A stretch of 64,000 nt of DNA from a virus. Its lineage: Duplodnaviria; Heunggongvirae; Uroviricota; Caudoviricetes. Below are positions 6,103 to 54,262 of this stretch, one piece after another; position 1 is the first letter of the stretch, and every line of letters starts with the position of its first letter. The translations under genes and the position numbers were made by a program. Location of the stretch: the IMG/VR virus record IMGVR_UViG_3300021407_000008, one strand, 5' to 3'. Under the pieces are notes generated by a model. The model had not been told where the DNA came from, searched no databases, and saw only the letters and a program-made list of their open reading frames with translations.

Positions 6103-8234
6103 TATCCCTGCATTATACCAAGTGGATCGTTGTCTTGGCCTTGGTTTTGTTGCGACTGGCTACCACCCTGCGCATTTTGTTGTGCGTCCAGCAGTGTTTT
6201 CAATAAGTCGATTTTGTGGTCTGGTGTCATGCTGGTTTCTTCAAGCAGCGAGTGGATGATTTTTGTGCCCGATTGCGCCAAACCCTTAGCTTCAATCTCT
6301 CCAAGGTGGGCTTGGTGCTGCTGGTTAATTGTAGACATCTGTTGCGCGAATTCATTCTTCTGTGCCAAGCGTTGTTTATCCTCTGCGGTTAAGTCGGTAA
6401 TGATTTCTTGTTCTCCGGGCCATTCGGAAGCGTCAAATAACTGCTGCGCGAATTTGCCAAAGTTAACTTTTTTGCCTTGCTCTTGTAAAGATTCCAGAAC
6501 TGGCGACTGGCTCAAGAATTGCATAAGCGGCAGAGCTATTTGCATCATAGCTGACTTTGCCCGCATCTTGGTTCCGGCCTGCATACTAAACTTTACATTC
6601 GCGTTCTTAACTTCAATTGCATCCCCTTCGTAGGCTTTCTCTAGTTCTTCATCCAGAACTGCCCGCATGTCCTCAATCGGTAGCCAGCGAGAATTCATTT
6701 CGTGAACTAGTTCTAAGAATGGGACGATAAACAAGCGAGATACGAAATCTACAAAATAAGCCGACCTAGCACCTACGCCAGCGGCTAGAGTATTAATTCC
6801 TGACGCTGTTCTGCCGATAGACGACGGATGTGACATTGCTCCTTGTGTAACAATTTCATTTGCGCCAGAACGTCTTTGCGCTCGCGAATCAGATGCTTCA
6901 ACTTCGGTAAACGCATCTATAATCGCGGGCGGATACTGAATCATTTGCACGCCCTTGTCATCGTCGGAATCAATGATTCCACCCGGACGTAGGCGCAACT
7001 GCTGAGTTGGAGTATTCGCGCCACGCTTGCGCAGGAACGTACCGGATAAACGTAGGGCTAAGTCATCTAAGCGGGAATTGATTACGCCTTGCTGTAGCCG
7101 CTGCTCGCCAGAAAGTAACTTGGTAATCCCAATTCCGTACCAGCTATCCAGAACATCTATTGGCGGAACGGAGAAGTAATTAATACACCCAAATTCATTG
7201 ATATCGTTTTTTAGGCAAAGCTTGCGATTTAGAACCACAATAGAACGAGTCGCGGTGGTGTATTCCAAAAGTTCTAATGGTTGCAAGTTTGGGTCTTCTG
7301 AAGGCGACTGCCAGCGCGGCATTGCCTTGAATTCCATGTTGATATCGAGAGATGACACGCCAGTATTAAGAACTGATGTTGTAGAGCGGCCCTCTAGTAC
7401 AGAACGTTCTGCGGATTCTTTTGGCGGAGTGAACAACGATTGCAGGAATTCGGTAGATGGAATGTTGTACCCCGGCTGGTTGCGCAACTGTTCCAAATCT
7501 TCCAATGTTGGGTACATGCGGTGAATCACAAACTTTGCCTTACGGATATCTGGAATACGCAGGTCGGGAGAAACCAGAAGGTGCCTAATATGTATCTTTT
7601 CCAGACAAGGCGCGTTAACTTCGTATTCTTCTAGTTCCTCAATAACTTTTCGCGACTCTTCCGTTGGCGTGATAATCGACATGCCCATACCAACGTTGCG
7701 TTGTTCGGGCTGGCCAGCATATTTATAAACTCTGCGAAACCTTTTTTCGCGCTTCCATCCGGCCTTCCAAACACCCATGCCATACTGCAAAGATTCTTTC
7801 AGGCCAAGCCGCAACTCTTCCTCGAAATTCATGTCTTTGAGTTGCTTGCTGATTAACTGGGTAACCGCACGGGCTGCATCTATTTTCGTTTGTGCTCTAG
7901 GCGTGCAGGAAAATGGCGGGTCGTCACCGTAGAGCGCTTGCATGTATTGCGGGAGCAGGGATTCGATATGCTCAAGTGTTAATGGAATACCTAGTGAGGA
8001 GCGCGGTACACTGGACCCCTCCCAAAACGCGGTTGGCATTCTAAAGAGATATAATCTGTCGTCTCTATCCCACTCTACAGTTAATCCCTTGGAAAGCGTG
8101 TACCACTCTGATCTTTGTAGGTCTTTTAGAACAAGGTTTAACGCAACTACATCTTCGGGTAATTGTGGTGCCAAGGGCATTTGCTCTGGCAATATTTCAT
8201 GGGCGAGGGAAATTGGACTTTGGAGTAATCCCAA
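6102..8234 (-). CDS. Putative portal protein
   Basis: 710-aa ORF immediately downstream of the terminase/homing-endonuclease genes in the canonical head-module position. No motif was verified. Confidence 0.45.
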   Translation of the reverse strand: MGLLQSPISLAHEILPEQMPLAPQLPEDVVALNLVLKDLQRSEWYTLSKGLTVEWDRDDRLYLFRMPTAFWEGSSVPRSSLGIPLTLEHIESLLPQYMQALYGDDPPFSCTPRAQTKIDAARAVTQLISKQLKDMNFEEELRLGLKESLQYGMGVWKAGWKREKRFRRVYKYAGQPEQRNVGMGMSIITPTEESRKVIEELEEYEVNAPCLEKIHIRHLLVSPDLRIPDIRKAKFVIHRMYPTLEDLEQLRNQPGYNIPSTEFLQSLFTPPKESAERSVLEGRSTTSVLNTGVSSLDINMEFKAMPRWQSPSEDPNLQPLELLEYTTATRSIVVLNRKLCLKNDINEFGCINYFSVPPIDVLDSWYGIGITKLLSGEQRLQQGVINSRLDDLALRLSGTFLRKRGANTPTQQLRLRPGGIIDSDDDKGVQMIQYPPAIIDAFTEVEASDSRAQRRSGANEIVTQGAMSHPSSIGRTASGINTLAAGVGARSAYFVDFVSRLFIVPFLELVHEMNSRWLPIEDMRAVLDEELEKAYEGDAIEVKNANVKFSMQAGTKMRAKSAMMQIALPLMQFLSQSPVLESLQEQGKKVNFGKFAQQLFDASEWPGEQEIITDLTAEDKQRLAQKNEFAQQMSTINQQHQAHLGEIEAKGLAQSGTKIIHSLLEETSMTPDHKIDLLKTLLDAQQNAQGGSQSQQNQGQDNDPLGIMQG

Positions 8235-40551: not shown

Positions 40552-41385
40552 TCACAGTATCCTCCGTTTATTCTCTACCAATGGGCGACCGTACTCGTTT
40601 AAAGGACCACCTCGGTAGCTGGTTAAGTGGGCAATTATCTTTCTTGGTCGATCTGCGGGGTTTATATTCTCGGAATAAGCATAATTCAATAACCATTCGC
40701 GGAACTGTTCTACGGTTGGTTTAATGTTGCTATCTAGGAATTTAGATAGTACAGCAGAATCGCTAGCATCCCAATTTGGCTCTACATCTGGAGCTAGATA
40801 CTTACAGCAATTAAGTAAGATTTCCTTACACCGAGAGAACTTACTCCTTACGTCGTCTAATGGTATTAAAACTAAATTCTCCGCCGAAGGCGTAGGATTA
40901 TTACTTAGTCTTGTTAATTGAGTCTTGTTAGTAGGCATCTGAGAAGGGATTAACCCGTCTGTGGGAAGGGATTCCAATCCCGTCTGTGGGAATGGATTCC
41001 CCGTAGAAGGGGTTTTTTTTACTGGTAAAACGGTGTAAATAGTCTTGGCCGTACATCCCACTCCATCTCTTTTGAAGCTTATCAATCCAGTATCTAGTAA
41101 AGCCTTAACGCTTCGCCGTATGCTACTTATTGAAATACCTAGTTTTTCAGCCATCAAGGATTGAGAAGGAAAACAGTTTCCGGTTTTATTGTCGGCATGA
41201 CGACAAAGAACAGCGTAAACCGCCAAGGCTATAGCTCCCACCTTTTTTGCGTGTTGGTCAACAACCTCGTTGTCAATCCAAAGGAAATTTCCGCGTACAT
41301 CCCTAACTTCAAATACTTCATCTTGTTTTTCTTTCACCCACAGACACCATCCCATGCGCTCAAAAGAGCTACGAATTTTAACCAA
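40552..41385 (-). CDS. Replication initiator-like HTH protein with internal iterons
   Basis: HTH segment MAEKLGISISSIRRSVKALLDTGLI. Direct repeats lie inside the coding region. Confidence 0.45.
   Translation of the reverse strand: MVKIRSSFERMGWCLWVKEKQDEVFEVRDVRGNFLWIDNEVVDQHAKKVGAIALAVYAVLCRHADNKTGNCFPSQSLMAEKLGISISSIRRSVKALLDTGLISFKRDGVGCTAKTIYTVLPVKKTPSTGNPFPQTGLESLPTDGLIPSQMPTNKTQLTRLSNNPTPSAENLVLIPLDDVRSKFSRCKEILLNCCKYLAPDVEPNWDASDSAVLSKFLDSNIKPTVEQFREWLLNYAYSENINPADRPRKIIAHLTSYRGGPLNEYGRPLVENKRRIL
40941..41030. repeat. Iteron-like direct repeats (putative replication origin) followed by an A/T tract
   Basis: gaaGGGATTaaCCCGTCTGTGGGAAgGGATTccaatCCCGTCTGTGGGAAtGGATTcccc then ggggtttttttt. 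Confidence 0.45.
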
Positions 41386-41514
41386 ATAATCAGCGATTAT
41401 CCCCTATTAGAAGTATAGACGGGGCGGGTTCGGAATAGGGGTACCGAGAAACCCGCCACGCATCTAAATACTTCAGAGAAAACTATAAGCCCACGCCAAA
41501 AGAAATTGCAAGCA

Positions 41515-43089
41515 CTAAAACACCCCTTCTTGCGACTCGTCCTCTACTGCAATAGATTCTATGCTCTGCCACACTCTGCCATTAGCGTCGGTTGAAACCG
41601 AGTAATCCCACGATAACTTGTTACCAACGCCTGCTTTCAGTGAAGTAAATAACGCTTCTTTGAAGCACTGAAAAGTCGAATGTGGATCGTGTTTTGGGTC
41701 GGATTCCAGATGTTTTACCTTAACTGTGCAAAAAGGTTTACCGCTCTTGGTTTTAAGCGGCGCACCGTCCACTGAATCCTTGTCGTTGTAACTGGCTATT
41801 TCAGCGGAAATTGAACGCATGTTAGCCCCCAACGGAAAAGCGGTTTGCGTAAATGCTGGCACCATGGTTTGTGATGGCGTTTCCTGCGTATTAGAAGCCG
41901 CTGGCTGCGCGTTTATAACCTTTTCCGTGCTGGCCAATAGGTCGGCTGGTATAGCCTCTTTGGTGATGGGGTCGCGGGCAAACTTATTCCCGTCTATATG
42001 GACGATTTCTTTGATGCTCAACAATCCTTTCGCGCCCCGCTGGACCATGAAACCAGCCTTTTTCTTACCTTTGGACATTAGCACGGCGCGGAATAAATGC
42101 TGATCGTAGAGGTAAAGCGTGGTATCTCCGATACATTTGACGCGAAAGAATTGCGCTCCTAGATGCTTCTTTTCCTCTGGAAGTGACTTGTTTTCTTCTA
42201 TTTGCTTTGGAGATAGGCGCGTCATACCAGTAACGTCTACATCCAAAACGGCAGTTTCCAGTGGAGTAAGTTCTGGAGATGGTTTGTCCGACTTCGGGCG
42301 GGCACGCTCGGCTTCGCGTTCATTGAATTCCGGCGTGCTTGCTTGCGCTACCCTGTCGTCTACACTTTGTAACAAAACCCCCTCTTTCGGGGAGTTTTGT
42401 GCAACTTCCGCGTCGATAAAAGCACGATCATGCCCGCGATTTGGCTCTTTGCTGACTTCCAGTGTGGCGCGTTCTACCTCGCGGCGAGATTGGCGCAGCG
42501 ATTCACGCACATTATCGTCCACTGTAGGCGGAATATCGGCAGCCTCTTCTGCTGTAATCAAACCACGCAAAGCATCGGAAAACTTGTCGCGCATTCCGAA
42601 TCCACGGGCGCGTTGTTGCAACATGCGATCTGGGTAGGTTTGCCATGGCCCTTCCTTACCCCAAAGCCTAGCTTTCTTGGCATCCGAAACGCTGAATCTG
42701 GTTTCGTGCCACTCTTGTCCTTTACGCTTAATCTGGAATACAGCCACACGCCCATCGCCAGAGCCCTCAAAGAATTCTTTATGGCTTTCATAGGATGGGT
42801 GGGACTGGACCACGCCTAGGGCCGCATCACCCCACAAGCACGGCCTGCCGTTGATTACGGCGATGTTCTGCAATGCCTGTAGTGGGGATAAACCGACTTC
42901 TGCCCCCATTTGCATAGCAATAAGAACATTTCCCGGCTTACCCTTGAAATCTCGCGGGGCAAGGTCGGACTTGGCAATCATGTCTGCAAAGGCGATTGCT
43001 TCGGTTAGGTTGGTTGGTGCGAATGTTTGCGCCTTTGGTACGATCATGTGGCGCGGTTCGGCTTTTACTACGGCGAGTTCTTCTGACAT
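41515..43089 (-). CDS. RecT-family single-strand annealing protein with an extended C-terminal domain
   Basis: GNVLIAMQMGAEVGLSPLQALQNIAVINGRPCLWGDA is RecT-like. Confidence 0.6.
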   Translation of the reverse strand: MSEELAVVKAEPRHMIVPKAQTFAPTNLTEAIAFADMIAKSDLAPRDFKGKPGNVLIAMQMGAEVGLSPLQALQNIAVINGRPCLWGDAALGVVQSHPSYESHKEFFEGSGDGRVAVFQIKRKGQEWHETRFSVSDAKKARLWGKEGPWQTYPDRMLQQRARGFGMRDKFSDALRGLITAEEAADIPPTVDDNVRESLRQSRREVERATLEVSKEPNRGHDRAFIDAEVAQNSPKEGVLLQSVDDRVAQASTPEFNEREAERARPKSDKPSPELTPLETAVLDVDVTGMTRLSPKQIEENKSLPEEKKHLGAQFFRVKCIGDTTLYLYDQHLFRAVLMSKGKKKAGFMVQRGAKGLLSIKEIVHIDGNKFARDPITKEAIPADLLASTEKVINAQPAASNTQETPSQTMVPAFTQTAFPLGANMRSISAEIASYNDKDSVDGAPLKTKSGKPFCTVKVKHLESDPKHDPHSTFQCFKEALFTSLKAGVGNKLSWDYSVSTDANGRVWQSIESIAVEDESQEGVF

Positions 43090-44078
43090 TTAGCTCCCTC
43101 AATTTGGATTAGAGATTTTTCAATCGTGCCCGTTAGATCAGACGGCAACGATATATCCGTTCTGCCGCGTCCACGCGCATATGGGCAGGTATTCCAGAAC
43201 GAACAATATTTTTCCGCGCAATACCATGCAACGTCCGGCGCTGGCACAAACATGCCACTGCGTATCGTGGCGATTCCATTCGCTAGGCGACTAAGGTAAT
43301 TGTCTATGTCGTCTAGATTGCGGACACTCTCAAGCGTAGTTGTGTTAACACCGCGCTTTAGATCAATGGTGTAGTCTAATTTAACCGCGTCTGGCAGTTT
43401 CCCATCTAGAACCTTAGATGCAAGACTGTACGCCGTGAGTTGGCTGCTTTCGTGCGCGATATCTGCGCTGGGGGTTTTCTTTGAGCTTTTTGTGTCCCTA
43501 ATGACCAGCCTTTCCCCAACAGATTCCACGATATCCTGCTCACCAACGAAATCGTAGCCCTCTCTAGCGGCTGCGTTCATTTGCGTGGCCTGATAATGCA
43601 GCACCTTGCGGGCATGGCTCAGCGTTTCCATTTCCGCTTGTTGGTGTAAAAACTTAGCCCTTGATCGTAAGAACTTGTCAAGATTTATGGAAAATTTACG
43701 GGCTACTTTAAACGGCTCAATATCTGGCGCAATTTCACAATGATGGGCCTTGGTTAAGCGCACCGCCTTATCTGCAACCGAATCGCGAATCTGTTCGATA
43801 GACTGGCCCTTTTCTTCATCCTCTGGCTCCAAATCGGTATAGTCGGCTTTTTGTGCCGAATCTCTGGCAACATCTAAAACTACCGACTCTTTCTCTAGGT
43901 CGCCCGTATCAATCTTGTGGTTAAGGTCTGTGCCAACGCCAGCATCTATGGCTGTACCGCTAATCAGGAAAGTTTTAGGACGGCGGCGCTTGTGCAGCAG
44001 GTAAATATTGGAAAATTGGATTCCACATTTACTCAGCGTTTCCATGCCGGATTGGTGAATCTGCTTACGCCACCCCAT
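43068..44078 (-). CDS. PD-(D/E)XK exonuclease (Cas4/RecB-like) partner of RecT
   Basis: C-terminal CxxxxC...C cluster (EKYCSFWNTCPY) and an IRDTK motif. Confidence 0.45.
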   Translation of the reverse strand: MGWRKQIHQSGMETLSKCGIQFSNIYLLHKRRRPKTFLISGTAIDAGVGTDLNHKIDTGDLEKESVVLDVARDSAQKADYTDLEPEDEEKGQSIEQIRDSVADKAVRLTKAHHCEIAPDIEPFKVARKFSINLDKFLRSRAKFLHQQAEMETLSHARKVLHYQATQMNAAAREGYDFVGEQDIVESVGERLVIRDTKSSKKTPSADIAHESSQLTAYSLASKVLDGKLPDAVKLDYTIDLKRGVNTTTLESVRNLDDIDNYLSRLANGIATIRSGMFVPAPDVAWYCAEKYCSFWNTCPYARGRGRTDISLPSDLTGTIEKSLIQIEGAKCQKNSP

Positions 44079-46619: not shown

Positions 46620-46702
46620 TGGTGCCGCTGGGGAGATTTGAACTCCCATGCCCGAAGGCGCTGCATTCTAAATGCAGTATGTATGCGTTCCATCACAGCG
46701 GC
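46620..46702 (-). tRNA. tRNA-Leu(TAG), class II
   Basis: 7-bp acceptor GCCGCTG/CAGCGGC. Anticodon loop TTTAGAA. Long variable arm, T-loop TTCAAAT, CCA encoded. Confidence 0.55.
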
Positions 46703-46704
46703 AT

Positions 46705-46787
46705 TGGTGCCAATGGAGAGACTTGCACTCTCACGCCTTGCGGCAACGGGGCTTAAATCCGTCGCGTATTCATTCCGCCACATTGGC
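46705..46787 (-). tRNA. tRNA-Leu(TAA), class II
   Basis: Acceptor GCCAATG/CATTGGC. Anticodon loop TTTAAGC. GNRA variable arm. CCA encoded. Confidence 0.55.
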
Positions 46788-46793
46788 AAAACT

Positions 46794-46884
46794 TGGTGGG
46801 TGCGGATCGAATTGAACGACCGAGGCTCACATGGAAGCCACTGGTTTACAGCCAGTCCGAGATTCCCAACATCTCAACGCACCC
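46794..46884 (-). tRNA. tRNA-Tyr(GTA), class II
   Basis: Acceptor GGGTGCG/CGCACCC. Anticodon loop CTGTAAA. Long variable hairpin. CCA encoded. Confidence 0.5.
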
Positions 46885-46889
46885 AAAAA

Positions 46890-46978
46890 TGGCAGAGGGT
46901 GGAGCATCGAAGCCCTAGCCCATCCCTGAGCTACCCACGGGTTCAAACCGCGTCGCCAGCCACTCTAGCGGCACCCTC
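46890..46978 (-). tRNA. Class II tRNA, possibly Ser(TGA); fold partly unresolved
   Basis: Acceptor AGAGGGT/ACCCTCT plus CCA. Candidate anticodon loop TTTGAAC. T-arm is ambiguous. Confidence 0.35.
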
Positions 46979-46979
46979 T

Positions 46980-47070
46980 GTGGCGGAGAGAGCGTGTGCT
47001 GACCACGCGTGCCCCATTTCTGGAAGCTCATCTTTAGCAAAGATGCGGTTTTACCGTTCACCCATCTCTC
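46980..47070 (-). tRNA. tRNA-Ser(GCT), class II
   Basis: Acceptor GGAGAGA/TCTCTCC. Anticodon loop TTGCTAA. CCA encoded. Confidence 0.5.
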
Positions 47071-47100
47071 CGTTTTAAAATTGTCAAAGACCTTAAACTT

Positions 47101-47185
47101 TGGTAGGCCAGAACGGACTTGAACCGTTACGCCTCGCGGCAGCGCATTTTGAGTGCGCCGTGTCTGCCATTCCAACCACTGGCCT
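47101..47185 (-). tRNA. tRNA-Leu(CAA), class II
   Basis: Acceptor AGGCCAG/CTGGCCT. Anticodon loop CTCAAAA. GNRA variable arm. T-arm ACGG-TTCAAGT-CCGT. Confidence 0.55.
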
Positions 47186-47271
47186 AAATTTTTACAGGGA
47201 TAAATAATACGAGCGCAGCGCGTATAGGCTGCTACTGAGTCGCAATGAGAGTGATAGAGTCATTGAAGTTT

Positions 47272-47347
47272 TGGGAGCAAGCCTTGGAGTCGAACCAAGT
47301 ATCCTTGCGTTATGAGCGCAAGATGAATTCCGTTTCACCCTCTTGCT
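47272..47347 (-). tRNA. tRNA-Met(CAT) (or Ile2/fMet)
   Basis: T-arm CTTGG-TTCGACT-CCAAG. Anticodon loop CTCATAA. CCA encoded. Confidence 0.5.
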
Positions 47348-47354
47348 TTGATGA

Positions 47355-47543
47355 TTAGAGCACGGGCACTGAAGTTGTGTCAAGTTTTTTAGCAATAAAA
47401 CCTCTCTTGGCTACTAAATATTGTTGCAGTAATTCTCTATAGTGAACTTGGCTTCTGGCGGTTCCGTACTTTTTCTTGCAACCAAGAATATAGCGACGAT
47501 AGGCTAACATTACATGTTCTCGGTTTGGGTGTGGATGGCTCAT
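47355..47543 (-). CDS. Small basic protein
   Basis: 62-aa ORF between tRNA genes. Confidence 0.3.
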   Translation of the reverse strand: MSHPHPNREHVMLAYRRYILGCKKKYGTARSQVHYRELLQQYLVAKRGFIAKKLDTTSVPVL

Positions 47544-47708
47544 TAGTATTTGGCGGTTGGCGGCTTATTCCACGCTCTTGTGGGCGGTACCGCTGCCCGA
47601 ATTACCGGCTGCAACTAGTGGTCGATCTACCGGTAGGGTCATCCCGTTTTGTTCCCTTTAACGACCCATGCCACTATCGGTGAAACCCGCCGCCAAGAAG
47701 ATTAGATT

Positions 47709-47886
47709 ACTCTGGCCACTCTCGCGGTGCAAGTTCTATGTTGGATTGTTCTAGCCATTGGGCATATGGTAACGGTTCTTTTACGGTGCGACAATAACGC
47801 TTGTAGCGTCCAATGGCAATACGTTCTCGCAGAACTACCTTGCCTAGCTTCTTGCGCCATTCTTGCTGAATTGGACGTGCTCTCAT
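47709..47886 (-). CDS. Small basic protein (about 59 aa)
   Basis: Manual translation gives MRARPIQQEWRKKLGKVVLRERIAIGRYKRYCRTVKEP... Confidence 0.25.
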
Positions 47887-47907
47887 AAAGTTAAACGGGA
47901 TAGCTTT

Positions 47908-47975
47908 CTGGCATACGCGGAATCGAACCGCGAACTCGGGTATCTCCGAATGTTGCCATTAACACTATGCGCCCT
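47908..47975 (-). pseudogene. tRNA-like element, possibly a degenerate tRNA
   Basis: Canonical T-arm CGCGG-TTCGATT-CCGCG, but the acceptor is imperfect and the anticodon loop has 6 nt. Confidence 0.3.
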
Positions 47976-48014
47976 ACTCGCTATCCCTATCGCGATTCTA
48001 TAGCATCGCGAATA

Positions 48015-48088
48015 CTGGTCCGGGTGGACGGAATTAAACCGTCATCTTCTGATCCCAAATCAGAGGCTCGATCTTCCAGCTACACCCG
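48015..48088 (-). tRNA. tRNA-Pro(GGG)
   Basis: Acceptor CCGGGTG/CACCCGG. Anticodon loop TTTGGGA. T-arm GACGG-TTTAATT-CCGTC. CCA encoded. Confidence 0.5.
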
Positions 48089-48193
48089 GAAACTTTTCTA
48101 ACGGAAACGTCGCGGGCCGAATCCGCGCTTTTGTAAATCCAACTTCATGGCCAGCAAGCATACCGCGTCCGGTTTCTCGTTGTCCGTTAGTAT

Positions 48194-48271
48194 TGGTGAG
48201 CAGTCTCCGAGTCGAACGGAATTCTGGTCGGCTTCAGCGACCCGCTAAATGACCCCACTAGCTCACTGCTC
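48194..48271 (-). tRNA. tRNA-Phe(GAA)
   Basis: Acceptor GAGCAGT/ACTGCTC. Anticodon loop CTGAAGC. T-loop TTCGACT. CCA encoded. Confidence 0.55.
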
Positions 48272-48353
48272 AAATTTGGTGGACCTGGACGGTTATCCTC
48301 CGTCTGCCTCCGCATTGCAAGTGCGGCGCTCTCGTAAGTGAGCTACAGGCCCA

Positions 48354-48433
48354 TGGGGTGGACGGTCGAAGTTGCATCGACAAAAGCACGGTTCCACAGA
48401 CCGGCCCGACATTCTGATAGTCGGCACGTCCAC
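48354..48433 (-). tRNA. tRNA-His(GTG)
   Basis: Acceptor GTGGACG/CGTCCAC with discriminator C. Anticodon loop CTGTGGA. CCA encoded. Confidence 0.45.
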
Positions 48434-48436
48434 AAC

Positions 48437-48508
48437 TGGAGCCGACTGTGCGTGATGATCGCACTCCGCAATGGGTACAAGCCGCTGCGCCCTCCCGAGG
48501 GAGTCGGC
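48437..48508 (-). pseudogene. tRNA-like element with no resolvable anticodon arm
   Basis: Perfect acceptor GCCGACT/AGTCGGC plus CCA. T-arm GTGCG-ATCATCA-CGCAC. The middle region does not fold canonically. Confidence 0.3.
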
Positions 48509-48513
48509 AAAAC

Positions 48514-48588
48514 TGGAGCCGCGAGAATGAATCCAACATTCGTAGGTTGCTTACCGAGCAACTGAACTAAGCACTGTTCTATCGCGGC
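48514..48588 (-). tRNA. tRNA-Thr(GGT)
   Basis: Acceptor GCCGCGA/TCGCGGC. D-stem GAAC/GTTC. Anticodon loop TCGGTAA. CCA encoded. Confidence 0.55.
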
Positions 48589-48590
48589 GG

Positions 48591-48662
48591 AGCCGGTACG
48601 GCGAATTGAGCGCCGATAACGAGTTTACGAATCTCGCATTCTTCCACTTGAATTATACCGGC
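48591..48662 (-). tRNA. tRNA-Thr(CGT) (no CCA encoded)
   Basis: Acceptor GCCGGTA/TACCGGC. D-stem ATTC/GAAT. Anticodon loop TTCGTAA. Confidence 0.45.
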
Positions 48663-48669
48663 CAAAAAC

Positions 48670-48744
48670 TGGAGAGCCGTGAGTGAATTCAACACTCGTA
48701 TAAGGTTTTGCAGACCTCAGCCTAAAGCACTCGGCCAACGGCTC
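48670..48744 (-). tRNA. tRNA-Cys(GCA)
   Basis: Acceptor GAGCCGT/ACGGCTC. Anticodon loop CTGCAAA. CCA encoded. Confidence 0.5.
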
Positions 48745-48748
48745 AATA

Positions 48749-48823
48749 TGGAGCGGTCGGCGGGAATTGCACCCGCGACGTTCTGTCTGGCAGACAGACA
48801 TTCTCGCTGCTGAATTACGACCG
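48749..48823 (-). tRNA. tRNA-Gly(GCC)
   Basis: Acceptor GCGGTCG/CGACCGC. D-stem ATTC/GAAT. Anticodon loop CTGCCAG. CCA encoded. Confidence 0.55.
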
Positions 48824-48993
48824 CAATTCTTCCTGCGCTTGTTTGCGTGTTGCGCCCTCCTTAATTCTGCGCTGAATATATATCTCGCGCATATATTTCA
48901 TTGTTTGCGCATTGTCTATGGAGCGAACATCCGAATCTGCCTCGGAACCAAGAGAGTGGAAATCTCTGATGCTGCTAATTACACCATGCTCGC

Positions 48994-49338
48994 TCATTCG
49001 CAACAAACTCCTTCCCTGTTAGTCGCCGTGCATTCCAAGCAATATTCCACGGCATGTTTTATGCACGGATAACCTTTCCAACCCTCGCGAGCCATATATT
49101 TATCCCAATGGCTTGCTACCCAATAACGCGGGCGAGACAATGAACCACAACGGTCATCCCAGCATTCCTTGCAACGCGCAGAACCAGCACCTTGCTTTGT
49201 TTCCTGGCCGCAATCGATACAGTAAGTGGCGGGAGTGGACGGTAATGATCCGCCTTCGCGAGATTTGGAGGCTCGCCGCTCACCTTTTGCATCTTCACTC
49301 CCGAATACTAACTTTCTTGCGAATTCAAGATACTTAAA
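48994..49338 (-). CDS. Cys-rich zinc-finger small protein
   Basis: CIDCGQETKQGAGSARCKEC...CLECT. Confidence 0.35.
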   Translation of the reverse strand, partial: FKYLEFARKLVFGSEDAKGERRASKSREGGSLPSTPATYCIDCGQETKQGAGSARCKECWDDRCGSLSRPRYWVASHWDKYMAREGWKGYPCIKHAVEYCLECTATNREGVCCE

Positions 49339-49357
49339 CATTGTTTTCCTTTCAAAA

Positions 49358-49434
49358 TGGCGCTCCGTGCGGGAGTCCAACCCGCTGTTTCCGTCGTGAC
49401 AGGACGGCGGCTATAAGCGTTCGCCCAACGGAGC
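49358..49434 (-). tRNA. tRNA-Asp(GTC)
   Basis: Acceptor GCTCCGT/ACGGAGC. Anticodon loop CTGTCAC. T-arm GCGGG-TTGGACT-CCCGC. CCA encoded. Confidence 0.5.
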
Positions 49435-49439
49435 AAACT

Positions 49440-49514
49440 TGGCGAGCGGTGGATGAATCCAACATCCGTTACTGCTTTCAGAGAGCAGCGCCTAAAGCAC
49501 TCGGCCAACCGCCC
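49440..49514 (-). tRNA. tRNA-Gln(CTG)
   Basis: Acceptor GGGCGGT/ACCGCTC (one G-U pair). Anticodon loop CTCTGAA. CCA encoded. Confidence 0.5.
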
Positions 49515-49520
49515 AAAAAC

Positions 49521-49594
49521 TGGAACCCGGTGGATGAGTTGAACATCCATTGCTTGAGTCAAAGTCAAGTGCCTCAGCCGTTCGGCCAACCGGG
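49521..49594 (-). tRNA. tRNA-Gln(TTG)
   Basis: Acceptor GCCCGGT/ACCGGGT. Anticodon loop CTTTGAC. T-loop TTCAACT. CCA encoded. Confidence 0.45.
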
Positions 49595-49777
49595 CTAAAC
49601 CTTCAACGGTATCGCACGCACACATCTCGCGCAGATTACCGAACTTGAATCTATATCCTTTTCTAGCTTGCGCCGCGCTTCGCATGCTTCTTCCACAAGG
49701 GCATAATGGTCGGTTCCCCTAGCACAGTAATCTATCGTGCCATTCAAAACAATCGCGCCAAATAATTCGTGCTTCAT
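49595..49777 (-). CDS. Small Cys-containing protein
   Basis: ORF from the internal start MKHELFGAIVLNG... Confidence 0.25.
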   Translation of the reverse strand: MKHELFGAIVLNGTIDYCARGTDHYALVEEACEARRKLEKDIDSSSVICARCVRAIPLKV

Positions 49778-49784
49778 AAATCCT

Positions 49785-49861
49785 TGGTGGCGGCAGCGAG
49801 AATTGAACTCGCATTCTGTCTGTGAAAGAGACATGTCCTAAATCAATTAGACGATACCGCC
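49785..49861 (-). tRNA. tRNA-Glu(TTC)
   Basis: Acceptor GGCGGTA/TGCCGCC. Anticodon loop CTTTCAC. T-arm GCGAG-TTCAATT-CTCGC. CCA encoded. Confidence 0.5.
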
Positions 49862-50067
49862 CTTAGTTCTGCCATTCTTTTGTCGGATGCAACCTTACTC
49901 CATCCATAGCCGTCCCATATTTGCTTTGGTCTATTTGTGGCTCGGTTTTCGTAATGTTTGCGAGCTTTTTCTTCTGCCACGAAATCACGCGGTATTCCGT
50001 GTCGCGGCGATGATGAAACTAGTCTGTTTCCCATTGCTTGCCTCCTAAAAACGTTTAAGCCCCGCAT
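49843..50067 (-). CDS. Small basic protein
   Basis: 74-aa ORF, partly overlapping the tRNA-Glu 5' end. Confidence 0.25.
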   Translation of the reverse strand: MRGLNVFRRQAMGNRLVSSSPRHGIPRDFVAEEKARKHYENRATNRPKQIWDGYGWSKVASDKRMAELRAVSSN

Positions 50068-50070
50068 TGT

Positions 50071-50098
50071 TTTTCGGGGCTTAGTTGAACTACGTTAA
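50071..50098 (-). terminator. Rho-independent terminator (minus strand)
   Basis: AAGCCCCG-AAAAACAATG-CGGGGCTT followed by a T-run on the minus strand. Confidence 0.45.
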
Positions 50099-50260
50099 AT
50101 GTATTTCCCCGATTGTTTAAGGCGTACCAGTTTCTTGCCACGGTTGTGTGGCTGCTGGGAAACAATCGGCATGGAACAATGTATACATTTGGTTAATGGA
50201 GTAATACTAAACTAATGTTTTACAAAATGCAAGTTTGAATCCAAGCCGAGAGCCAGAGTT

Positions 50261-50593
50261 TCAGGGATATATCCTATTGAAGTACGCGTAGAACTCTTCT
50301 TGCGTCATACCTTTTACCTTATGGCAGTAGTTATAAACGCCCACCAGTTGATGATAACCAATGCCCAAGCCACTATAGGGGCGCACGGCTGGACGCCAGA
50401 AATGCTTGCACCGGAGTTGCTTCCACTTTTGTCCGCTTTCCAGTTCCTTGTCGCTTACGGTCATTTCTCCGTGCCCTCCTTGGGACTGATCTACGGCGCT
50501 GCCACAGTGATAAATAGTGCTATAGATGCTAAGTCGAATACGATTACGACCGGAACCCATAGCGCGTGACCACAGTTGTCCAACCAGTAGCAC
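50261..50593 (-). CDS. Hypothetical protein
   Basis: 110-aa ORF. Confidence 0.3.
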   Translation of the reverse strand: MLLVGQLWSRAMGSGRNRIRLSIYSTIYHCGSAVDQSQGGHGEMTVSDKELESGQKWKQLRCKHFWRPAVRPYSGLGIGYHQLVGVYNYCHKVKGMTQEEFYAYFNRIYP

Positions 50594-50680
50594 ACTCCAC
50601 CTGTCGCGAAGAAACTAAAAAGCCACAGAAGTTTTCCAAACCAACTCAACCAAGTTTTGATCACTGTCCATCCTTGGGCC

Positions 50681-50884
50681 TCAATGATTGCCAGCGTTTC
50701 TCAAGGCTCGTTCAAGATCGGCGATGGATACCGTTATGGAATGTCCTCGCCAGTCGAGAATCGCGAAATAGTTAAATATGCGGTGCGCCTTCACAATCAG
50801 GGCATCCGCCTCGTTAGGCAGTCCTTTGCGCTCGTTGCCGTCGATTTCGTAAGGGTCAAGACTAGTTTCTACAGTCTTAGCCAT
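50681..50884 (-). CDS. Hypothetical small protein
   Basis: 67-aa ORF adjacent to the next gene. Confidence 0.3.
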   Translation of the reverse strand: MAKTVETSLDPYEIDGNERKGLPNEADALIVKAHRIFNYFAILDWRGHSITVSIADLERALRNAGNH

Positions 50885-50885
50885 C

Positions 50886-52040
50886 TTACTTCTCCTTCTT
50901 CCCGGCGTCAGCCCCGAGAGCTTTCGCTGCTTCGATTTCCCATGCGTAGTGCTCCTTCATCCATCTCTCCTTGTTTCGGCCGCAGTTTTGGATGCTGGGA
51001 GCCGATTGGATGAGGACCTTGAGCTTGGCAATCTCGGCCTCTTTCTCCGCGACTCGGGCAGCGGCGTATCGGCGCATGGATTCCTGTGAGACTTTCATTA
51101 TCGTCAAACCGTCAAGCAGTCGGCAGGTTGTGCAGAATAACGATTCGTTGCCTCCAGTTAACTCAGCGGTCACAGCGGATAGCAACTGGCCTTCGGGAGT
51201 ACTGGCTAGTTCACGTTCTTGTCGAGTCAATACTGCATCTTGATTGTCTCGCTCGGGGAGCGATAAGCCGTCTCCAGCTTCGGAGGGATTGACCTCGGGA
51301 AAGGTAGACCGCTCCGGCTCCCCGAACTTTATTAGCGGCTCCGTACCCGCTGACCCGCCAGCATTCGTTTCCGCTCGCTTGTCGTCGAGAAGTTTAGTGC
51401 AGACTTCTACGCACTGGTCGCAGATGTAGGCACGCTCCTTAAAATCGTTGGGTGTAACAATAAGCCAGTTCACCTCGGCCTGTGTTTTGTGACAAAAGTA
51501 GCATATCGGCCCTCCGACTACTTGAGCGTGCTGATGCACGCCGATTTGACTTGATAAAGCCTTTCGTGATGACTGCGGACAGTTCCCACACTGTAAGCCC
51601 TGGAATGGCACACGCCGACCGCAACCGTGGATACAAAACGATTGTCCAGAGGAAGATAACTGCATGGGAGCGGACTGCCGTTCGCTGGGCAAGGCTGCAT
51701 CGGATTCTTTGCTAAATAGGTCGTCACAATTGGGACACTTACCTCGATTATTTTCCCATGATGCCAGATAGTTCTCGCGCTTACATTGAGGACATTTCTT
51801 GAATTCAGGTTCTACTCCGGGACAGTATCGCATCGGTCGGCCTCCAAATGTGTGCGCCGAATGAGGCGCTTCATAACAGCATCGCTCGCCCTGCGCTGGT
51901 GCTGGAAGTTGATGCGCAACCCATCCTCGACATGCAGACGTTTTCTGGTGCAAATATCCGCCCGCATAAGGGTGCCCTTGATCGAACGCTGTTTCACAAA
52001 GTCCGACCTCGCCCTGCGCTGGTGCTTCCTTCTCGCTCAC
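50886..52040 (-). CDS. Multi-zinc-ribbon protein with a ClpX-type C4 zinc finger
   Basis: ICYFCHKTQAEVNWLIVTPNDFKERAYICDQCVEVCTKLL resembles the ClpX N-terminal zinc finger. Several CPxC motifs. GTG start after AAGCG. Confidence 0.4.
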   Translation of the reverse strand: MSEKEAPAQGEVGLCETAFDQGHPYAGGYLHQKTSACRGWVAHQLPAPAQGERCCYEAPHSAHTFGGRPMRYCPGVEPEFKKCPQCKRENYLASWENNRGKCPNCDDLFSKESDAALPSERQSAPMQLSSSGQSFCIHGCGRRVPFQGLQCGNCPQSSRKALSSQIGVHQHAQVVGGPICYFCHKTQAEVNWLIVTPNDFKERAYICDQCVEVCTKLLDDKRAETNAGGSAGTEPLIKFGEPERSTFPEVNPSEAGDGLSLPERDNQDAVLTRQERELASTPEGQLLSAVTAELTGGNESLFCTTCRLLDGLTIMKVSQESMRRYAAARVAEKEAEIAKLKVLIQSAPSIQNCGRNKERWMKEHYAWEIEAAKALGADAGKKEK

Positions 52041-52044
52041 AGAA

Positions 52045-52419
52045 TTACCTCCCGTATGCGGACAATTGGACTACCCAACTGTTCGTGGATTTGTTCCATT
52101 CTTCCGCGACCCATCCAAGTGTGCCTTCTGCCCAGTCTGGGCCAATATCTACACACTTTCCAGCGGCTACCTTGCTCGGCGCAACCGCGTCACCGATCTT
52201 GGCCGTGGTACCTTCAAACGTACATATAGCTAGTACGTTGAGATTAGCTTCCTTGCTGGCCCGAAGCGGTTTGGTGTTCGGTACTGTGTCCGATTGGACA
52301 CCAATAAAGACGCCGAAAAACAGAGCGCCCATACACGTGAATATCCAAGTAAACGGCACCCACGAAGGTAGCTTTGGCTCAGTAGTTTCAGTTTCTATTG
52401 TGGCTTCCTTCTCGCTCAT
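52045..52419 (-). CDS. Membrane protein (paralogous MSEKEA N-terminus)
   Basis: Transmembrane segment FTWIFTCMGALFFGVFIGV. Shared start cassette. Confidence 0.4.
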   Translation of the reverse strand: MSEKEATIETETTEPKLPSWVPFTWIFTCMGALFFGVFIGVQSDTVPNTKPLRASKEANLNVLAICTFEGTTAKIGDAVAPSKVAAGKCVDIGPDWAEGTLGWVAEEWNKSTNSWVVQLSAYGR

Positions 52420-52703
52420 GGCTTCTTAGCTCCTAACTGAAAGTGGTTGCGAATTTCGGATGCCCGACAATGGACGGCCACATCACGTCCCAAATCATGT
52501 AGCCATTTGCCCTCTGGCCGCTGGAATATAGGTTCCCCACCTTCGCAATCCGCACAAAGCACTTTACAGCACTGCTCCGCGATCTCGCGGCCGAAGTCCG
52601 CCACGCGCTGATCCGCCCAGCCAACCTCTCCGCTTTGCTCTCGAAAGTGACCCGCTGCCTGCGCCAGTTTGGCCGGCGGTGCTTCCTTTCTGTCTCCGCT
52701 CAT
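52416..52703 (-). CDS. Cys-containing small protein (MSGDRKEA N-terminus)
   Basis: Shared start cassette. CCKVLCADCEGG. Confidence 0.35.
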   Translation of the reverse strand: MSGDRKEAPPAKLAQAAGHFREQSGEVGWADQRVADFGREIAEQCCKVLCADCEGGEPIFQRPEGKWLHDLGRDVAVHCRASEIRNHFQLGAKKP

Positions 52704-52886
52704 CGCTTCGGCTTCTCCAATCTGAAATGCTTAGGGCATAGATGGACGATTACCTTGTCAGGAACCTTCAGAATCGTTCCTTGTTGAGTTGTCAAAGCGC
52801 AGGATGTCAACTGAGCCGTTGCCTTACATTGTTGACCATCCCACGCACCGCATCTAAACCTTGGCTTCCTGTCTCCGCTCACAAGT
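52700..52886 (-). CDS. Small protein (VSGDRKPR N-terminus, GTG start)
   Basis: Shared start cassette GTGAGCGGAGACAGGAAG. Confidence 0.3.
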
Positions 52887-53115
52887 CCTCCGTCGCCTTC
52901 TTGGCTCCGAGAATCCGCTTCATCTCCGCCGCGATGCAACGCTTGGCAAGACCGTCAAATGGCCTGCCCAGAAACATCTCAACTGCCTCGACCGTAACAT
53001 GGATGGCACGCTCAATCGTTCCCTTTGGATGGATGATCATTGCGCCATTCTTGCAAAAGTGCTCGGCAATTGATCGGAACGGTGATTCCTCTTTCGTCTC
53101 AGCCCCCGCACTCAT
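52879..53115 (-). CDS. Small protein (MSAGAETKEE N-terminus)
   Basis: Shared AAGCG-ATGAG start context. Confidence 0.35.
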   Translation of the reverse strand: MSAGAETKEESPFRSIAEHFCKNGAMIIHPKGTIERAIHVTVEAVEMFLGRPFDGLAKRCIAAEMKRILGAKKATEDL

Positions 53116-53171
53116 CGCTTCTGTCCTCTCTGATTAAGAGATTATATAGCACGGGAAAAGATTCAAGAAAA

Positions 53172-53247
53172 TGGTGCCAGCACCGAGAATCCAACTCGGA
53201 TTTGCTCTTTAGGGGAGAGCCGTGTTCGTGCGTTACACTATGCCAGC
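53172..53247 (-). tRNA. Possible tRNA-Arg(CCT) (acceptor has two G-U pairs)
   Basis: T-arm CCGAG-TTGGATT-CTCGG plus CCA. Anticodon arm GCTCT-CCCCTAA-AGAGC. Confidence 0.35.
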
Positions 53248-53555
53248 AAAATCGGCCATCAGGAGAAACCGCAAACCTTCGCCAGCTACTTCGTCCTTCT
53301 GTGTTGGGTCACTCGAAACGATTAAGCTTAATCTATCCCAACCTTCTGCCCGCGCTTTCCACGGGATTAGGAGCGTTTCCTTCCAGACTTTTTGCCAACT
53401 TCGGTTGTTCCACTAGAACCATTACTGGACTGCATCTAACTTCGCAACCGCGACTCTAGATCGACTTTTCGGCTTCGGTCCAAGCGAACAGCCCAAGCAA
53501 GTCGTCCAACTTGTGCGTCAGTTTTTTCGTGGCCAAAATAAATATAGCATGAAAA

Positions 53556-53631
53556 TGGTAGGGCCATGAGGACTTGAACCCCAATCGCTCGTTCCGTAGA
53601 CGAGTGCCTTAATCCGGTTAGACGATGGCCC
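53556..53631 (-). tRNA. tRNA-Arg(ACG)
   Basis: Acceptor GGGCCAT/ATGGCCC. Anticodon loop CTACGGA. T-arm TGGGG-TTCAAGT-CCTCA. CCA encoded. Confidence 0.5.
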
Positions 53632-53634
53632 CGT

Positions 53635-53709
53635 TGGGACTCGCTGGCAGGCTCGAACTGCCGTTCCACGGGTAGAAGCCGTGATCCTTTCCTGTTGGAC
53701 GAAGCGAGC
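53635..53709 (-). tRNA. tRNA-Arg(TCT)
   Basis: Acceptor GCTCGCT/AGCGAGT. Anticodon loop CTTCTAC. T-arm GGCAG-TTCGAGC-CTGCC. CCA encoded. Confidence 0.5.
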
Positions 53710-53716
53710 ATAAAAT

Positions 53717-53792
53717 TGGTCGGGGCCAAGGGATTCCCACCCTTATCGGCTCGCTTAAAAGGCGAGGGTACTCAGTGTTGTACTAGACCCCG
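53717..53792 (-). tRNA. tRNA-Lys(TTT)
   Basis: D-stem GTAC/GTAC. Anticodon loop CTTTTAA. CCA encoded. Confidence 0.55.
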
Positions 53793-53793
53793 T

Positions 53794-53872
53794 TGGTGGG
53801 TGCGGCCCGAGTCGAACGGGCATGATCCAAATTAAGAGTTTGGAGCGCTTTCCATTACTCCGCCACGCACCC
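53794..53872 (-). tRNA. tRNA-Lys(CTT)
   Basis: Acceptor GGGTGCG/CGCACCC. Anticodon loop CTCTTAA. T-arm GCCCG-TTCGACT-CGGGC. CCA encoded. Confidence 0.45.
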
Positions 53873-53873
53873 A

Positions 53874-53947
53874 TGGTTCTCCGAGAAAGAGTCGAACTTT
53901 CGTAACGTGCTTATCAGACACGCGAACTACCGTTGTTCTATCGGAGA
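53874..53947 (-). tRNA. tRNA-Ile(GAT)
   Basis: Acceptor TCTCCGA/TCGGAGA. D-stem GAAC/GTTC. Anticodon loop CTGATAA. CCA encoded. Confidence 0.55.
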
Positions 53948-53953
53948 AAAATC

Positions 53954-54027
53954 TGGTACCGGATGATTGAGTCGAACAATCGTAAGTGGTGTGTAGGACC
54001 ACGGCTTTACCCTTAAGCTAATCCGGC
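53954..54027 (-). tRNA. tRNA-Val(TAC)
   Basis: D-stem GCTT/AAGC. Anticodon loop CCTACAC. T-arm GATTG-TTCGACT-CAATC. CCA encoded. Confidence 0.55.
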
Positions 54028-54029
54028 GC

Positions 54030-54104
54030 TGGTGGGCGATGGACGAATCGAACGTCCGACCAGAAGTTTATAAGACTTCCCATCTGCCACTGATGTAATC
54101 GCCC
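54030..54104 (-). tRNA. tRNA-Ile(TAT) (AUA-reading)
   Basis: Acceptor GGGCGAT/ATCGCCC. D-stem CATC/GATG. Anticodon loop CTTATAA. CCA encoded. Confidence 0.5.
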
Positions 54105-54111
54105 TAAAAAT

Positions 54112-54185
54112 TGGTCGCTCATTTCCGAGTCGAACGGAAGTAGGTGGGATATGAAGCCACTGCACTGCCCTTGTGCTAATGAGCG
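54112..54185 (-). tRNA. tRNA-Met(CAT) (second copy; possible initiator or Ile2)
   Basis: Acceptor CGCTCAT/ATGAGCG. D-stem GCAC/GTGC. Anticodon loop TTCATAT. CCA encoded. Confidence 0.45.
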
Positions 54186-54187
54186 GG

Positions 54188-54262
54188 CTGGCCGAGTAGG
54201 AATCGAACCTACGCATGGCGAAATTAACAGTTTCGTGCCTTACCAACTTGGCTACCGGCCAA
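54188..54262 (-). tRNA. tRNA-Asn(GTT) (no CCA encoded)
   Basis: Anticodon arm CGAAA-CTGTTAA-TTTCG. T-arm GTAGG-TTCGATT-CCTAC. Confidence 0.45.

Follow-up and report, generated by a model that had tools for sequence, protein, structure and literature searches.

An iteron array and candidate replication origin embedded in the initiator gene of an uncultivated Caudoviricetes phage

In phage lambda, the replication origin is contained in the gene of its own initiator: the stretch of the O gene that encodes the linker contains four dyad-symmetric iterons of about 19 bp, after which comes an AT-rich region, the N-terminal domain of O binds these iterons, and its C-terminal domain recruits the helicase complex. 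The iterons of lambdoid phages differ together with the N-terminal domain of O. The present work concerns a similarly arranged locus in a 64,000-nucleotide stretch of DNA (hereafter, the window) from an uncultivated Caudoviricetes virus, IMG/VR record IMGVR_UViG_3300021407_000008, in which a gene for a predicted replication initiator (40552..41337, minus strand) carries direct repeats and an adjoining conserved A+T-rich block. On the evidence of sequence comparison, this gene probably contains a theta-type replication origin, the region 40867-41020, in the part that encodes the linker.

Origins of this type are already known from lambda O/ori, SPP1 G38P/oriL and pSK41 Rep, and the window is a further case. 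Gene 38 of phage SPP1 contains oriL, which comprises AB boxes bound by G38P and an adjacent AT-rich DNA unwinding element (DUE); a 356-bp oriL fragment supports reconstituted theta replication (PMC5737612). In the plasmid pSK41, ori is located centrally in the rep gene, where the N-terminal domain of Rep binds four Rep boxes; the central domain, encoded by ori, is a linker that can be dispensed with, and the C-terminal domain is host- or machinery-specific (PMC5703833). RepA_N replicons typically have iterons in the form of semi-palindromic direct repeats (PMC7145576). The DUEs of oriC and RK2 contain repeated 13-mers whose sequence matters, and the initiators bind single-stranded DUE DNA with sequence specificity (PMC10797057).

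The window locus has the same order and logic as O/ori-lambda, with the N-terminal domain, the iterons and a meltable A+T-rich block following one another along the gene. However, it has two strong and two weak iterons rather than four, its putative unwinding region contains a specific tandem 14-mer, and its protein has no Phage_rep_O match and only a weak match to PHROG 'O-like' families. With SPP1 oriL it shares the position between a DNA-binding N-terminal part and a C-terminal domain, as well as the succession of repeats and A-rich DUE in the direction of transcription. In SPP1 gene 38, inspection revealed the boxes GAAACGACAC and GAAAAAGACAC and, after them, AAACAACAATGATAACAATGAAAACAATGATAACAAAACTAATATT, whose coding strand is rich in A; the last part of the SPP1 DUE, TAACAAAACTAATAT, differs from the window 14-mer by a single mismatch. 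The SPP1 gene order (exonuclease, RecT-like protein, gene 38, loader, helicase) also resembles that of the window. On the other hand, the iteron sequences are unrelated, G38P has the Phg_2220_C domain (pfam09524), to which the C-terminal domain of the window protein is unrelated, and SPP1 encodes its loader (G39P) separately, together with the DnaB-type helicase G40P, whereas the window phage has a fused primase-helicase. The window and pSK41 both carry repeats centrally in the gene, over the linker, which bind the initiator in pSK41 and would do so in the window, but the window protein belongs to HTH_36 rather than RepA_N and is encoded by a phage and not by a plasmid. Finally, short tandem A+T-rich repeats of 13-14 bp beside known or presumed initiator-binding sites are common to the window, Escherichia coli oriC and RK2 oriV; the 13-mers of the latter two vary between replicons, whereas the AACAAGACT core of the window 14-mers is common to phages of several phyla.

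Iterons within the initiator gene

The following features of the gene, in the direction of its transcription, bear on the proposed origin:

40552..41337, minus strand: replication initiator gene, 261 amino acids (aa) from a GTG at 41337, in a frame open up to a TTG at 41385
41020..41337, minus strand: N-terminal winged-helix DNA-binding domain (aa 1-106, HTH_36 match), presumed iteron binder
41013-41020: T8 on the plus strand, A8 tract on the gene (minus) strand, just upstream of the repeats in gene direction
40999-41012: r0, degenerate palindromic iteron-like copy, plus strand CCCCGTAGAAGGGG, gene strand (minus) CCCCTTCTACGGGG, found by direct sequence reading
40979-40998: r1, iteron, plus strand CCCGTCTGTGGGAATGGATT, gene strand (minus) AATCCATTCCCACAGACGGG, found by repeat search and Tandem Repeats Finder
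40954-40973: r2, iteron 25 bp from r1, plus strand CCCGTCTGTGGGAAGGGATT, gene strand (minus) AATCCCTTCCCACAGACGGG, found by repeat search and Tandem Repeats Finder
40932-40951: r3, degenerate iteron 22 bp from r2, plus strand TAGGCATCTGAGAAGGGATT, gene strand (minus) AATCCCTTCTCAGATGCCTA, found by repeat search (family D1)
40555..40845, minus strand: helical C-terminal domain without a Pfam family, conserved in P0002-P0006, presumed recruiter of the replication machinery

The array (40932-41012) consists of two near-identical 20-nt copies, r1 and r2, with 19 of 20 bases alike, and two degenerate copies, at a spacing of 22-25 bp; on the plus strand, the spacers are AA between r3 and r2 and CCAAT between r2 and r1. 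On the gene strand, the iteron core reads ACAGACGGG followed by (A/T)T, and the period is close to two helical turns. The exact 14-mer CCCGTCTGTGGGAA occurs in r1 and r2 only, with no third site in the 64 kb. Tandem Repeats Finder reported the interval 40943-41000 (period 25, 2.5 copies) as the top tandem repeat of the window with a score of 86, while 200 third-order Markov simulations of the window, considering periods of at least 10, gave a best score of 43 on average and 70 at most (0/200 reached 86). The repeats are real and statistically exceptional. The original prediction of three to four copies of a 20-25-bp unit, with ggggtttttttt after them, holds if two of the copies are taken as strong and two as weak; the putative functional unit reaches beyond the left end of the interval given there, 40941-41030, to about 40867.

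The repeats encode residues 109-136 of the initiator, inside its linker. The gene-strand 14-mer TTCCCACAGACGGG gives FPQTG in one copy and, shifted by one frame, LPTDG in the other, so the repetition is a property of the DNA and not a peptide repeat. The A8 tract encodes the conserved Lys-Lys of 'PVKK' and is partly kept in homologues; it is probably retained for coding and possibly for DNA bending. An intrinsic terminator on the plus strand, formed by CCCCGTAGAAGGGG and the T8 run, was considered and rejected, since its stem has only 4 bp, it is absent from the terminator scan list, and the A-run codes for Lys-Lys.

The product of the gene is identical to the database protein P0001 (261 aa), which starts at the GTG at 41337 and carries PF13730. 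The Pfam family HTH_36 matches residues 37-86 (53-102 if counted from the TTG at 41385) with an E-value of 8.6e-14 and 51.5 bits against a cut-off of 25. The best PHROG matches are 270/428 ('replication initiation protein'), 186 ('DnaD-like helicase loader') and 678 ('replication initiation O-like'); the replication-initiation families match at 1e-14 to 1e-9 and the 'O-like' families 678, 391 and 345 weakly, at 2e-9 to 3e-5. These matches agree with the earlier placement of the array inside the coding sequence of a helix-turn-helix protein. No Pfam match to Phage_rep_O (at E<=0.01), RepA_N (PF06970) or Phg_2220_C (PF09524) was obtained for the window protein, which would work like O but, judging by Pfam, belongs to HTH_36 and to none of these three families. 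In an AlphaFold 2 model, built from six sequences only and of low confidence (mean predicted local distance difference test score, pLDDT, of 49.7), a winged-helix fold spans aa 27-103 (pLDDT 62-79), helices occupy aa 166-238, and the linker, aa 106-164, is unstructured with a pLDDT of about 30.

A protein search returned five homologues of the initiator, and DNA was compared for three distinct genes, L001, L002 and L003, whose products are 73%, 70% and 52% identical to the window protein, respectively. L001 is an 86-kb syntenic contig, and its initiator gene is identical in the IMG/VR and JGI contigs L004 and L008. Both domains align well at the protein level, but the alignment collapses precisely at the linker, which contains indels and is hypervariable. 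The absence of the repeats from related phages, or a lack of conservation there, had been named beforehand as evidence that would speak against the prediction; all three homologues carry repeats at the same site. L002 has copies with the AGACGGG(A/T)T core of the window, one of them inverted, including a counterpart of r3. L001 has three ACGTTTC copies, one inverted and two 22 bp apart, and L003 has, at the same position of the gene, three copies of the 19-bp palindrome GTGCTCAAAATCTGAGCAC with a spacing of 22-23 bp. The predicted recognition helices of the window (SISSIRRSVK) and L002 (SISTIRRSVK) go with a repeat core in common, while those of L001 (SIPTVRKSIK) and L003 (SRNTVKRGLV) go with differing repeats; across the four homologous genes, three repeat types track three recognition-helix types. 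Judged from these alignments, the architecture is conserved while repeat specificity shifts together with the predicted DNA-binding domain, as expected of iterons.

The locus thus combines the features of an embedded origin, namely an initiator with a predicted DNA-binding domain, repeats in the linker, a putative A+T-rich unwinding element, and covariation of iterons and recognition helix. The lambda O/ori-like arrangement proposed originally, with an initiator binding iterons in its own gene, was borne out in every prediction accessible to computation, with the binding itself being what these features suggest. The following mechanism could be proposed. Dimers of the initiator would bind r0-r3 via the N-terminal winged helix, by analogy with lambda O, SPP1 G38P and pSK41 Rep and in line with the helix-iteron covariation. 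The resulting nucleoprotein complex would open the adjoining 14-mer block, as its position, stability and DNA-level conservation suggest, and the C-terminal domain could then recruit the primase-helicase (37149-38801) to the melted DNA, a step suggested by the arrangement of domains alone. The origin DNA would encode a disordered linker, free in its sequence to follow the needs of the DNA, which would explain why the linker is hypervariable among relatives.

Several observations weigh against an origin at this locus, in addition to the limits given here with the structural model and, below, with the codon counts. Only two iterons are well conserved in the window, L001, the closest complete relative, has weak repeats only, and the helix-iteron covariation rests on four sequences. 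The phage has no cultured relative, a BLAST search of 50,697 GenBank phage records gave no DNA match, and scans of viral and genome contigs with single proteins revealed no close relative. In two related IMG/VR contigs of about 100 kb, the C-terminal domain is encoded as a stand-alone protein of 126-157 aa (L005 2872-3345, L006 2947-3327), and no adjacent winged helix-turn-helix (wHTH) domain, iterons or 14-mers were found around it. This origin type is therefore not universal in the group, and these phages must organise their origin differently; the separate occurrence of the C-terminal domain also indicates that it is an autonomous module. In L005, a stretch of about 800 bp without long open reading frames lies upstream of the stand-alone gene. 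Cumulative GC skew has no inflection at 41 kb, although it is uninformative here, since transcription direction dominates skew in phages.

The lack of a skew signal at the site would also suit another explanation, in which the repeats are wHTH binding sites serving for autoregulation, as a roadblock or as a secondary site, while the true origin is located elsewhere. Proteins with wHTH domains are often regulators, and a search of PDB sequences with the initiator found only regulators of the MarR/GntR/SlyA type with weak E-values. Moreover, SPP1 has a second G38P-binding region (PMC3485210), and its oriR binds the protein without early firing. Nevertheless, we consider this explanation unlikely: the sites lie in the middle of the gene and not at a promoter, the iteron motif is found nowhere else in the 64 kb, so no better candidate site was seen in the window, and the layout matches that of oriL, the firing origin of SPP1. 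In addition, a conserved and highly meltable block adjoins the array, for which a pure operator would have no need.

The conserved block and its 14-mers

Directly 3' of the repeats in gene direction, the alignment of the four genes revealed a block conserved at the DNA level, with the following parts:

40867-40932, minus strand: DNA-conserved 66-bp block, ACTAACAAGACTCAATTAACAAGACTAAGTAATAATCCTACGCCTTCGGCGGAGAATTTAGTTTTA
40903..40930, minus strand: two tandem 14-mers (TAACAAGACTnAnT), TAACAAGACTCAAT and TAACAAGACTAAGT, proposed core of the unwinding element
40881..40893, minus strand: small GC palindrome, ACGCC-TTC-GGCGG, inside the block

The block is composed of the two 14-mers, GTAATAAT, the GC palindrome and AATTTAGTTTTA, and is nearly invariant across the window, L001, L002 and L003. 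Where pairs of genes encode the same residue, the codons are identical in 92 of 108 cases inside the block (85%) and in 355 of 818 outside it (43%; Fisher p=3e-17), counts that are not phylogenetically independent, although the contrast is large. The four genes use one and the same codon in 11/15 columns inside the block versus 8/91 outside it. The codon comparison indicates that selection in the block acts on nucleotides. In the L003 counterpart of the palindrome, CTGCC-TGC-GGCAG, a double change from C:G to T:A keeps the pairing, which is a single compensatory case.

The tandem pair of the 14-mer motif occurs once only in the 64 kb, and its copies are read in two frames, as NKT and TRL, because the period is 14. 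By nearest-neighbour energies computed over 40-bp windows, duplex stability in the gene region is lowest at 40893-40933, and 99.9% of all such windows in the 64 kb are more stable than this one. Its position, low helix stability and DNA-level conservation suggest that the block is an A+T-rich DNA unwinding element. Other functions were considered for it. A sigma-70 scan found no internal promoter at the 14-mers, and the -10 matches seen by hand in the window are poor; a structured RNA or single-stranded DNA at the locus was likewise rejected, as the single-stranded DNA fold gave an unconvincing z-score of -1.9 and no Rfam family was matched. Thus, neither a promoter or terminator nor an Rfam family or a convincing single-strand structure was found that could explain the block.

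One could also suppose that the locus has no cis function, that slippage or duplication in a disordered linker generated the repeats incidentally, and that the block reflects protein constraint or recent recombination. Disordered linkers do tolerate insertions and repeats, this one is rich in indels, and the block encodes a conserved peptide, TNKTQLTRLSNNPTPSAENLVL. However, the units of 22 and 25 nt put the copies into different frames, the homologues have unrelated repeats at the same spot, with a helical-turn period and internal dyad symmetry, and conservation of synonymous sites is about twice as frequent inside the block as outside it. Furthermore, as described below, AACAAGACT is kept in all three frames and outside the coding region. 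In view of these data, a purely neutral origin of the repeats appears very unlikely.

Tandem 14-mers in other genomes

In all, the AACAAGACT tandem occurs in about 18 other lineages. A DNA-pattern scan of public collections found it in very different genomes, in 2-4 copies with a period of 14 or 15, and at each of these loci the tandem comes immediately after other, lineage-specific repeats. In the viral contig L013, it is located inside an HTH_36 or RepA_N initiator gene. The replication initiation protein gp41 of Clostridium phage phiCD6356 has four copies of GTAGTGAATGTGATGCACAACAG in its gene, followed by TAACAAGACTAATATTAACAAGACTAAATTAACTAATAATATATATAG, and iterons followed by the tandem are also carried by the replication protein gene of Streptococcus phage Javan367 and by the gene of a helix-turn-helix protein on a Bacillus mycoides plasmid. 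About 10 further IMG/VR lineages, with G+C contents from 26 to 53%, have the tandem in HTH_36/RepA_N genes. In a metagenome-assembled genome of Chloroflexia (L014, CAWEMM010000012.1, 78-1682), a 534-aa protein joins an HTH_36 initiator to an IstB/DnaC-like AAA+ domain, and its linker region contains GGTCAAG-type repeats and the AACAAGACT tandem in a genome of high G+C content; by its domain composition, this protein is a predicted one-polypeptide initiator-loader. In the AT-rich viral contigs L010 (230-340, minus strand) and L012 (9990-10100, minus strand), two palindromic iterons (GTAGGACTATAATAGTCC) and three copies of TAACAAGACTAAAT lie just past the stop codon of a short open reading frame (…NLKQNM*) with a wHTH recognisable by eye; the element lies wholly after the stop, so the tandem is kept there without coding constraint. 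Depending on the locus, the AACAAGACT core is read as NKT, TRL or (E)QD, and all three frames are used within one L026 array. The A two bases past the core is invariant in 43 copies, although the search pattern did not demand it.

Two checks did not depend on selecting loci by the motif. With the N-terminal domain of the window protein as query, tblastn against GenBank phages gave 194 records, mostly Salinibacter phages and a few of the Bacillus group, and in 3/3 records, one per group and chosen by protein similarity alone, iterons precede an A-rich tandem of 14-15 bp:

Bacillus phage vB_BceS_LY4: TAACAATACTAATCTTAACAATACTAATT
Parageobacillus phage JGon-2020a: AACTATACTCATTTAACTATACTCATT
Salinibacter phage 2_3: AACAAAGAGAGAAGTAAACAAAGAGAGAG

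The second check counted peptide footprints of the tandem, in any of the three frames, among homologues of the N-terminal domain, of which there are 3503 at E<=1e-3 among 1.84 billion representatives. The best 147 of these homologues include 116 full-length proteins, 30 of which have footprints, compared with a mean of 0.55 and a maximum of 3 after shuffling, and nearly all of the footprints lie at residues 127-173.

Some DNA-pattern matches were judged to be due to chance or unrelated and were set aside, namely L015 (Muribaculaceae), L017 (a marine virus), L020 (a Tolypothrix plasmid), L022 and L029/L038 (low complexity in giant viruses), L025/L035, L039, L047 and L048. A BLAST search of plasmids with the 14-mer tandem returned phage-like plasmids of Bacillus and Clostridioides and no staphylococcal RepA_N plasmids. 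A string search for TAACAAGACT, AGTCTTGTTA and ACAAGACTAA in 8 million papers, with figures and subscription journals outside its reach, found no description of the 14-mer, only primers and other unrelated papers. A cross-phylum tandem 14-mer marking the putative unwinding side of origins may be new.

The HTH_36/RepA_N initiator superfamily extends over phages, phage-plasmids and prophages from Bacillota, from Chloroflexota and from the host of this phage, and A-rich tandem variants occur in a Salinibacter phage. Among the carriers of the tandem, the N-terminal domain is of the RepA_N type in Javan367, L023 and L030. Their C-terminal domains vary, being Phg_2220_C (in phiCD6356 gp41 and L023), DnaB_2, an IstB/DnaC-like AAA+ fusion or none recognised. 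Helicase systems vary as well, and the HTH_36/RepA_N-type N-terminal domain is the sole constant partner of the 14-mers across loci; a DnaG-type primase, of the host or the phage, is plausibly available in all these systems. Tentatively, one could hypothesise that the tandem 14-mer tAACAAGACTnAnt is, beyond generic AT-richness, a sequence-specific element for origin opening or loading, common to much of the HTH_36/RepA_N superfamily. It might be recognised, as duplex or single strand, by a conserved surface of the winged helix or by a universal factor such as a DnaG-type primase.

The position of the block at the exact border between the variable N-terminal domain with its iterons and at least four unrelated C-terminal types (Phg_2220_C, DnaB_2, the IstB-like AAA+ fusion and the novel domain of the window protein) suggests a further possibility, that the 14-mer block is a module junction promoting homologous exchange of the N-terminal-domain-plus-iteron and C-terminal modules and not an unwinding element. 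The Rep protein of pPR9, with its phage-type pfam13730 (HTH_36) N-terminal domain, is a documented natural chimera at that border (PMC5703833). However, 25-40 bp is short for efficient homologous recombination, and selection for exchange would be second-order. A tandem, minimally stable element that is A-rich on one strand fits the 13-mers of oriC and RK2 (PMC10797057), and its position fits the AT-rich DUE of SPP1 oriL (PMC5737612). A role as a junction instead of an unwinding element is thus quite unlikely, although the two roles are not mutually exclusive. Altogether, an operator or roadblock, a neutral linker repeat and a recombination junction are each less likely than an embedded origin at 40867-41020.

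Genomic context and implications

The genes around the initiator that are relevant to replication and recombination are the following:

37149-38801, minus strand: primase-helicase gene; Pfam Zn_ribbon_DnaG, Toprim_2 (weak) and AAA_25, PHROG 239 (DNA primase/helicase)
41515-43089, minus strand: gene of a RecT-like annealing protein, directly adjoining the initiator gene
43068-44078, minus strand: PD-(D/E)XK exonuclease gene, on the same strand as the initiator

The RecT-like and exonuclease genes are adjacent to the initiator, as predicted from the sequence originally, but the primase-helicase gene, which had been described as adjacent too, lies 1.7 kb downstream with small open reading frames in between. 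This gene is syntenic in L001, and its product is the likely partner of the initiator, that is, the enzyme that would be loaded at the origin. In L001, an HNH endonuclease gene (7334-7894) is located between the exonuclease and RecT-like genes, and it is absent at the matching place in the window.

Upstream of the initiator gene, the leader (41386-41514, minus strand) contains a promoter-like TTGCAA-18-TATAGT (41511-41482), TCTGAAGTATTTAGATGCG and a GC-rich hairpin, GGCGGGTT...AACCCGCC (41420-41460). These features are conserved in L001 (9815-10000), L002 (100-231) and L003 (400-541), and this region is possibly a regulatory leader. The 9-mer CCCGTCTRT is present in four copies in the 64 kb against 0.78 expected, all four within 1.05 kb. 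The copy in the leader (41415-41423, minus strand) was rejected as an operator, being part of a promoter-plus-GC-hairpin leader that is kept in L001-L003 whatever their iterons; another copy, at 41989-41997 on the plus strand inside the RecT-like gene, is unexplained. The window also contains 27 tRNA genes in three clusters (46620-54262, minus strand) covering most amino acids. The uncultivated phage has a genome of about 103 kb, the longest contig with P0001 being 103,165 nt.

The analysis assigns to this phage a concrete candidate origin (40867-41020) with its predicted initiator, iterons, unwinding element and likely helicase partner, assignments that are beyond the reach of annotation because the phage has no cultured relative. 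Three signs could reveal embedded origins of this kind from their sequence: repeats that differ between lineages and lie in a hypervariable linker, reduced synonymous variation, and a AACAAGACT-type tandem. According to the work on PLE RepA, how RepA_N/HTH_36 initiators open DNA is not yet understood (PMC7145576). If the tandem is indeed a specific recognition element, it would offer a handle on this question and would be the plasmid and phage counterpart of the DnaA-trio or of the 13-mers. It would then also provide a compact, searchable signature of where the origin lies and which polarity it has, applicable to thousands of uncultivated mobile elements, and would aid origin prediction in viromes and replicon design for non-model bacteria.

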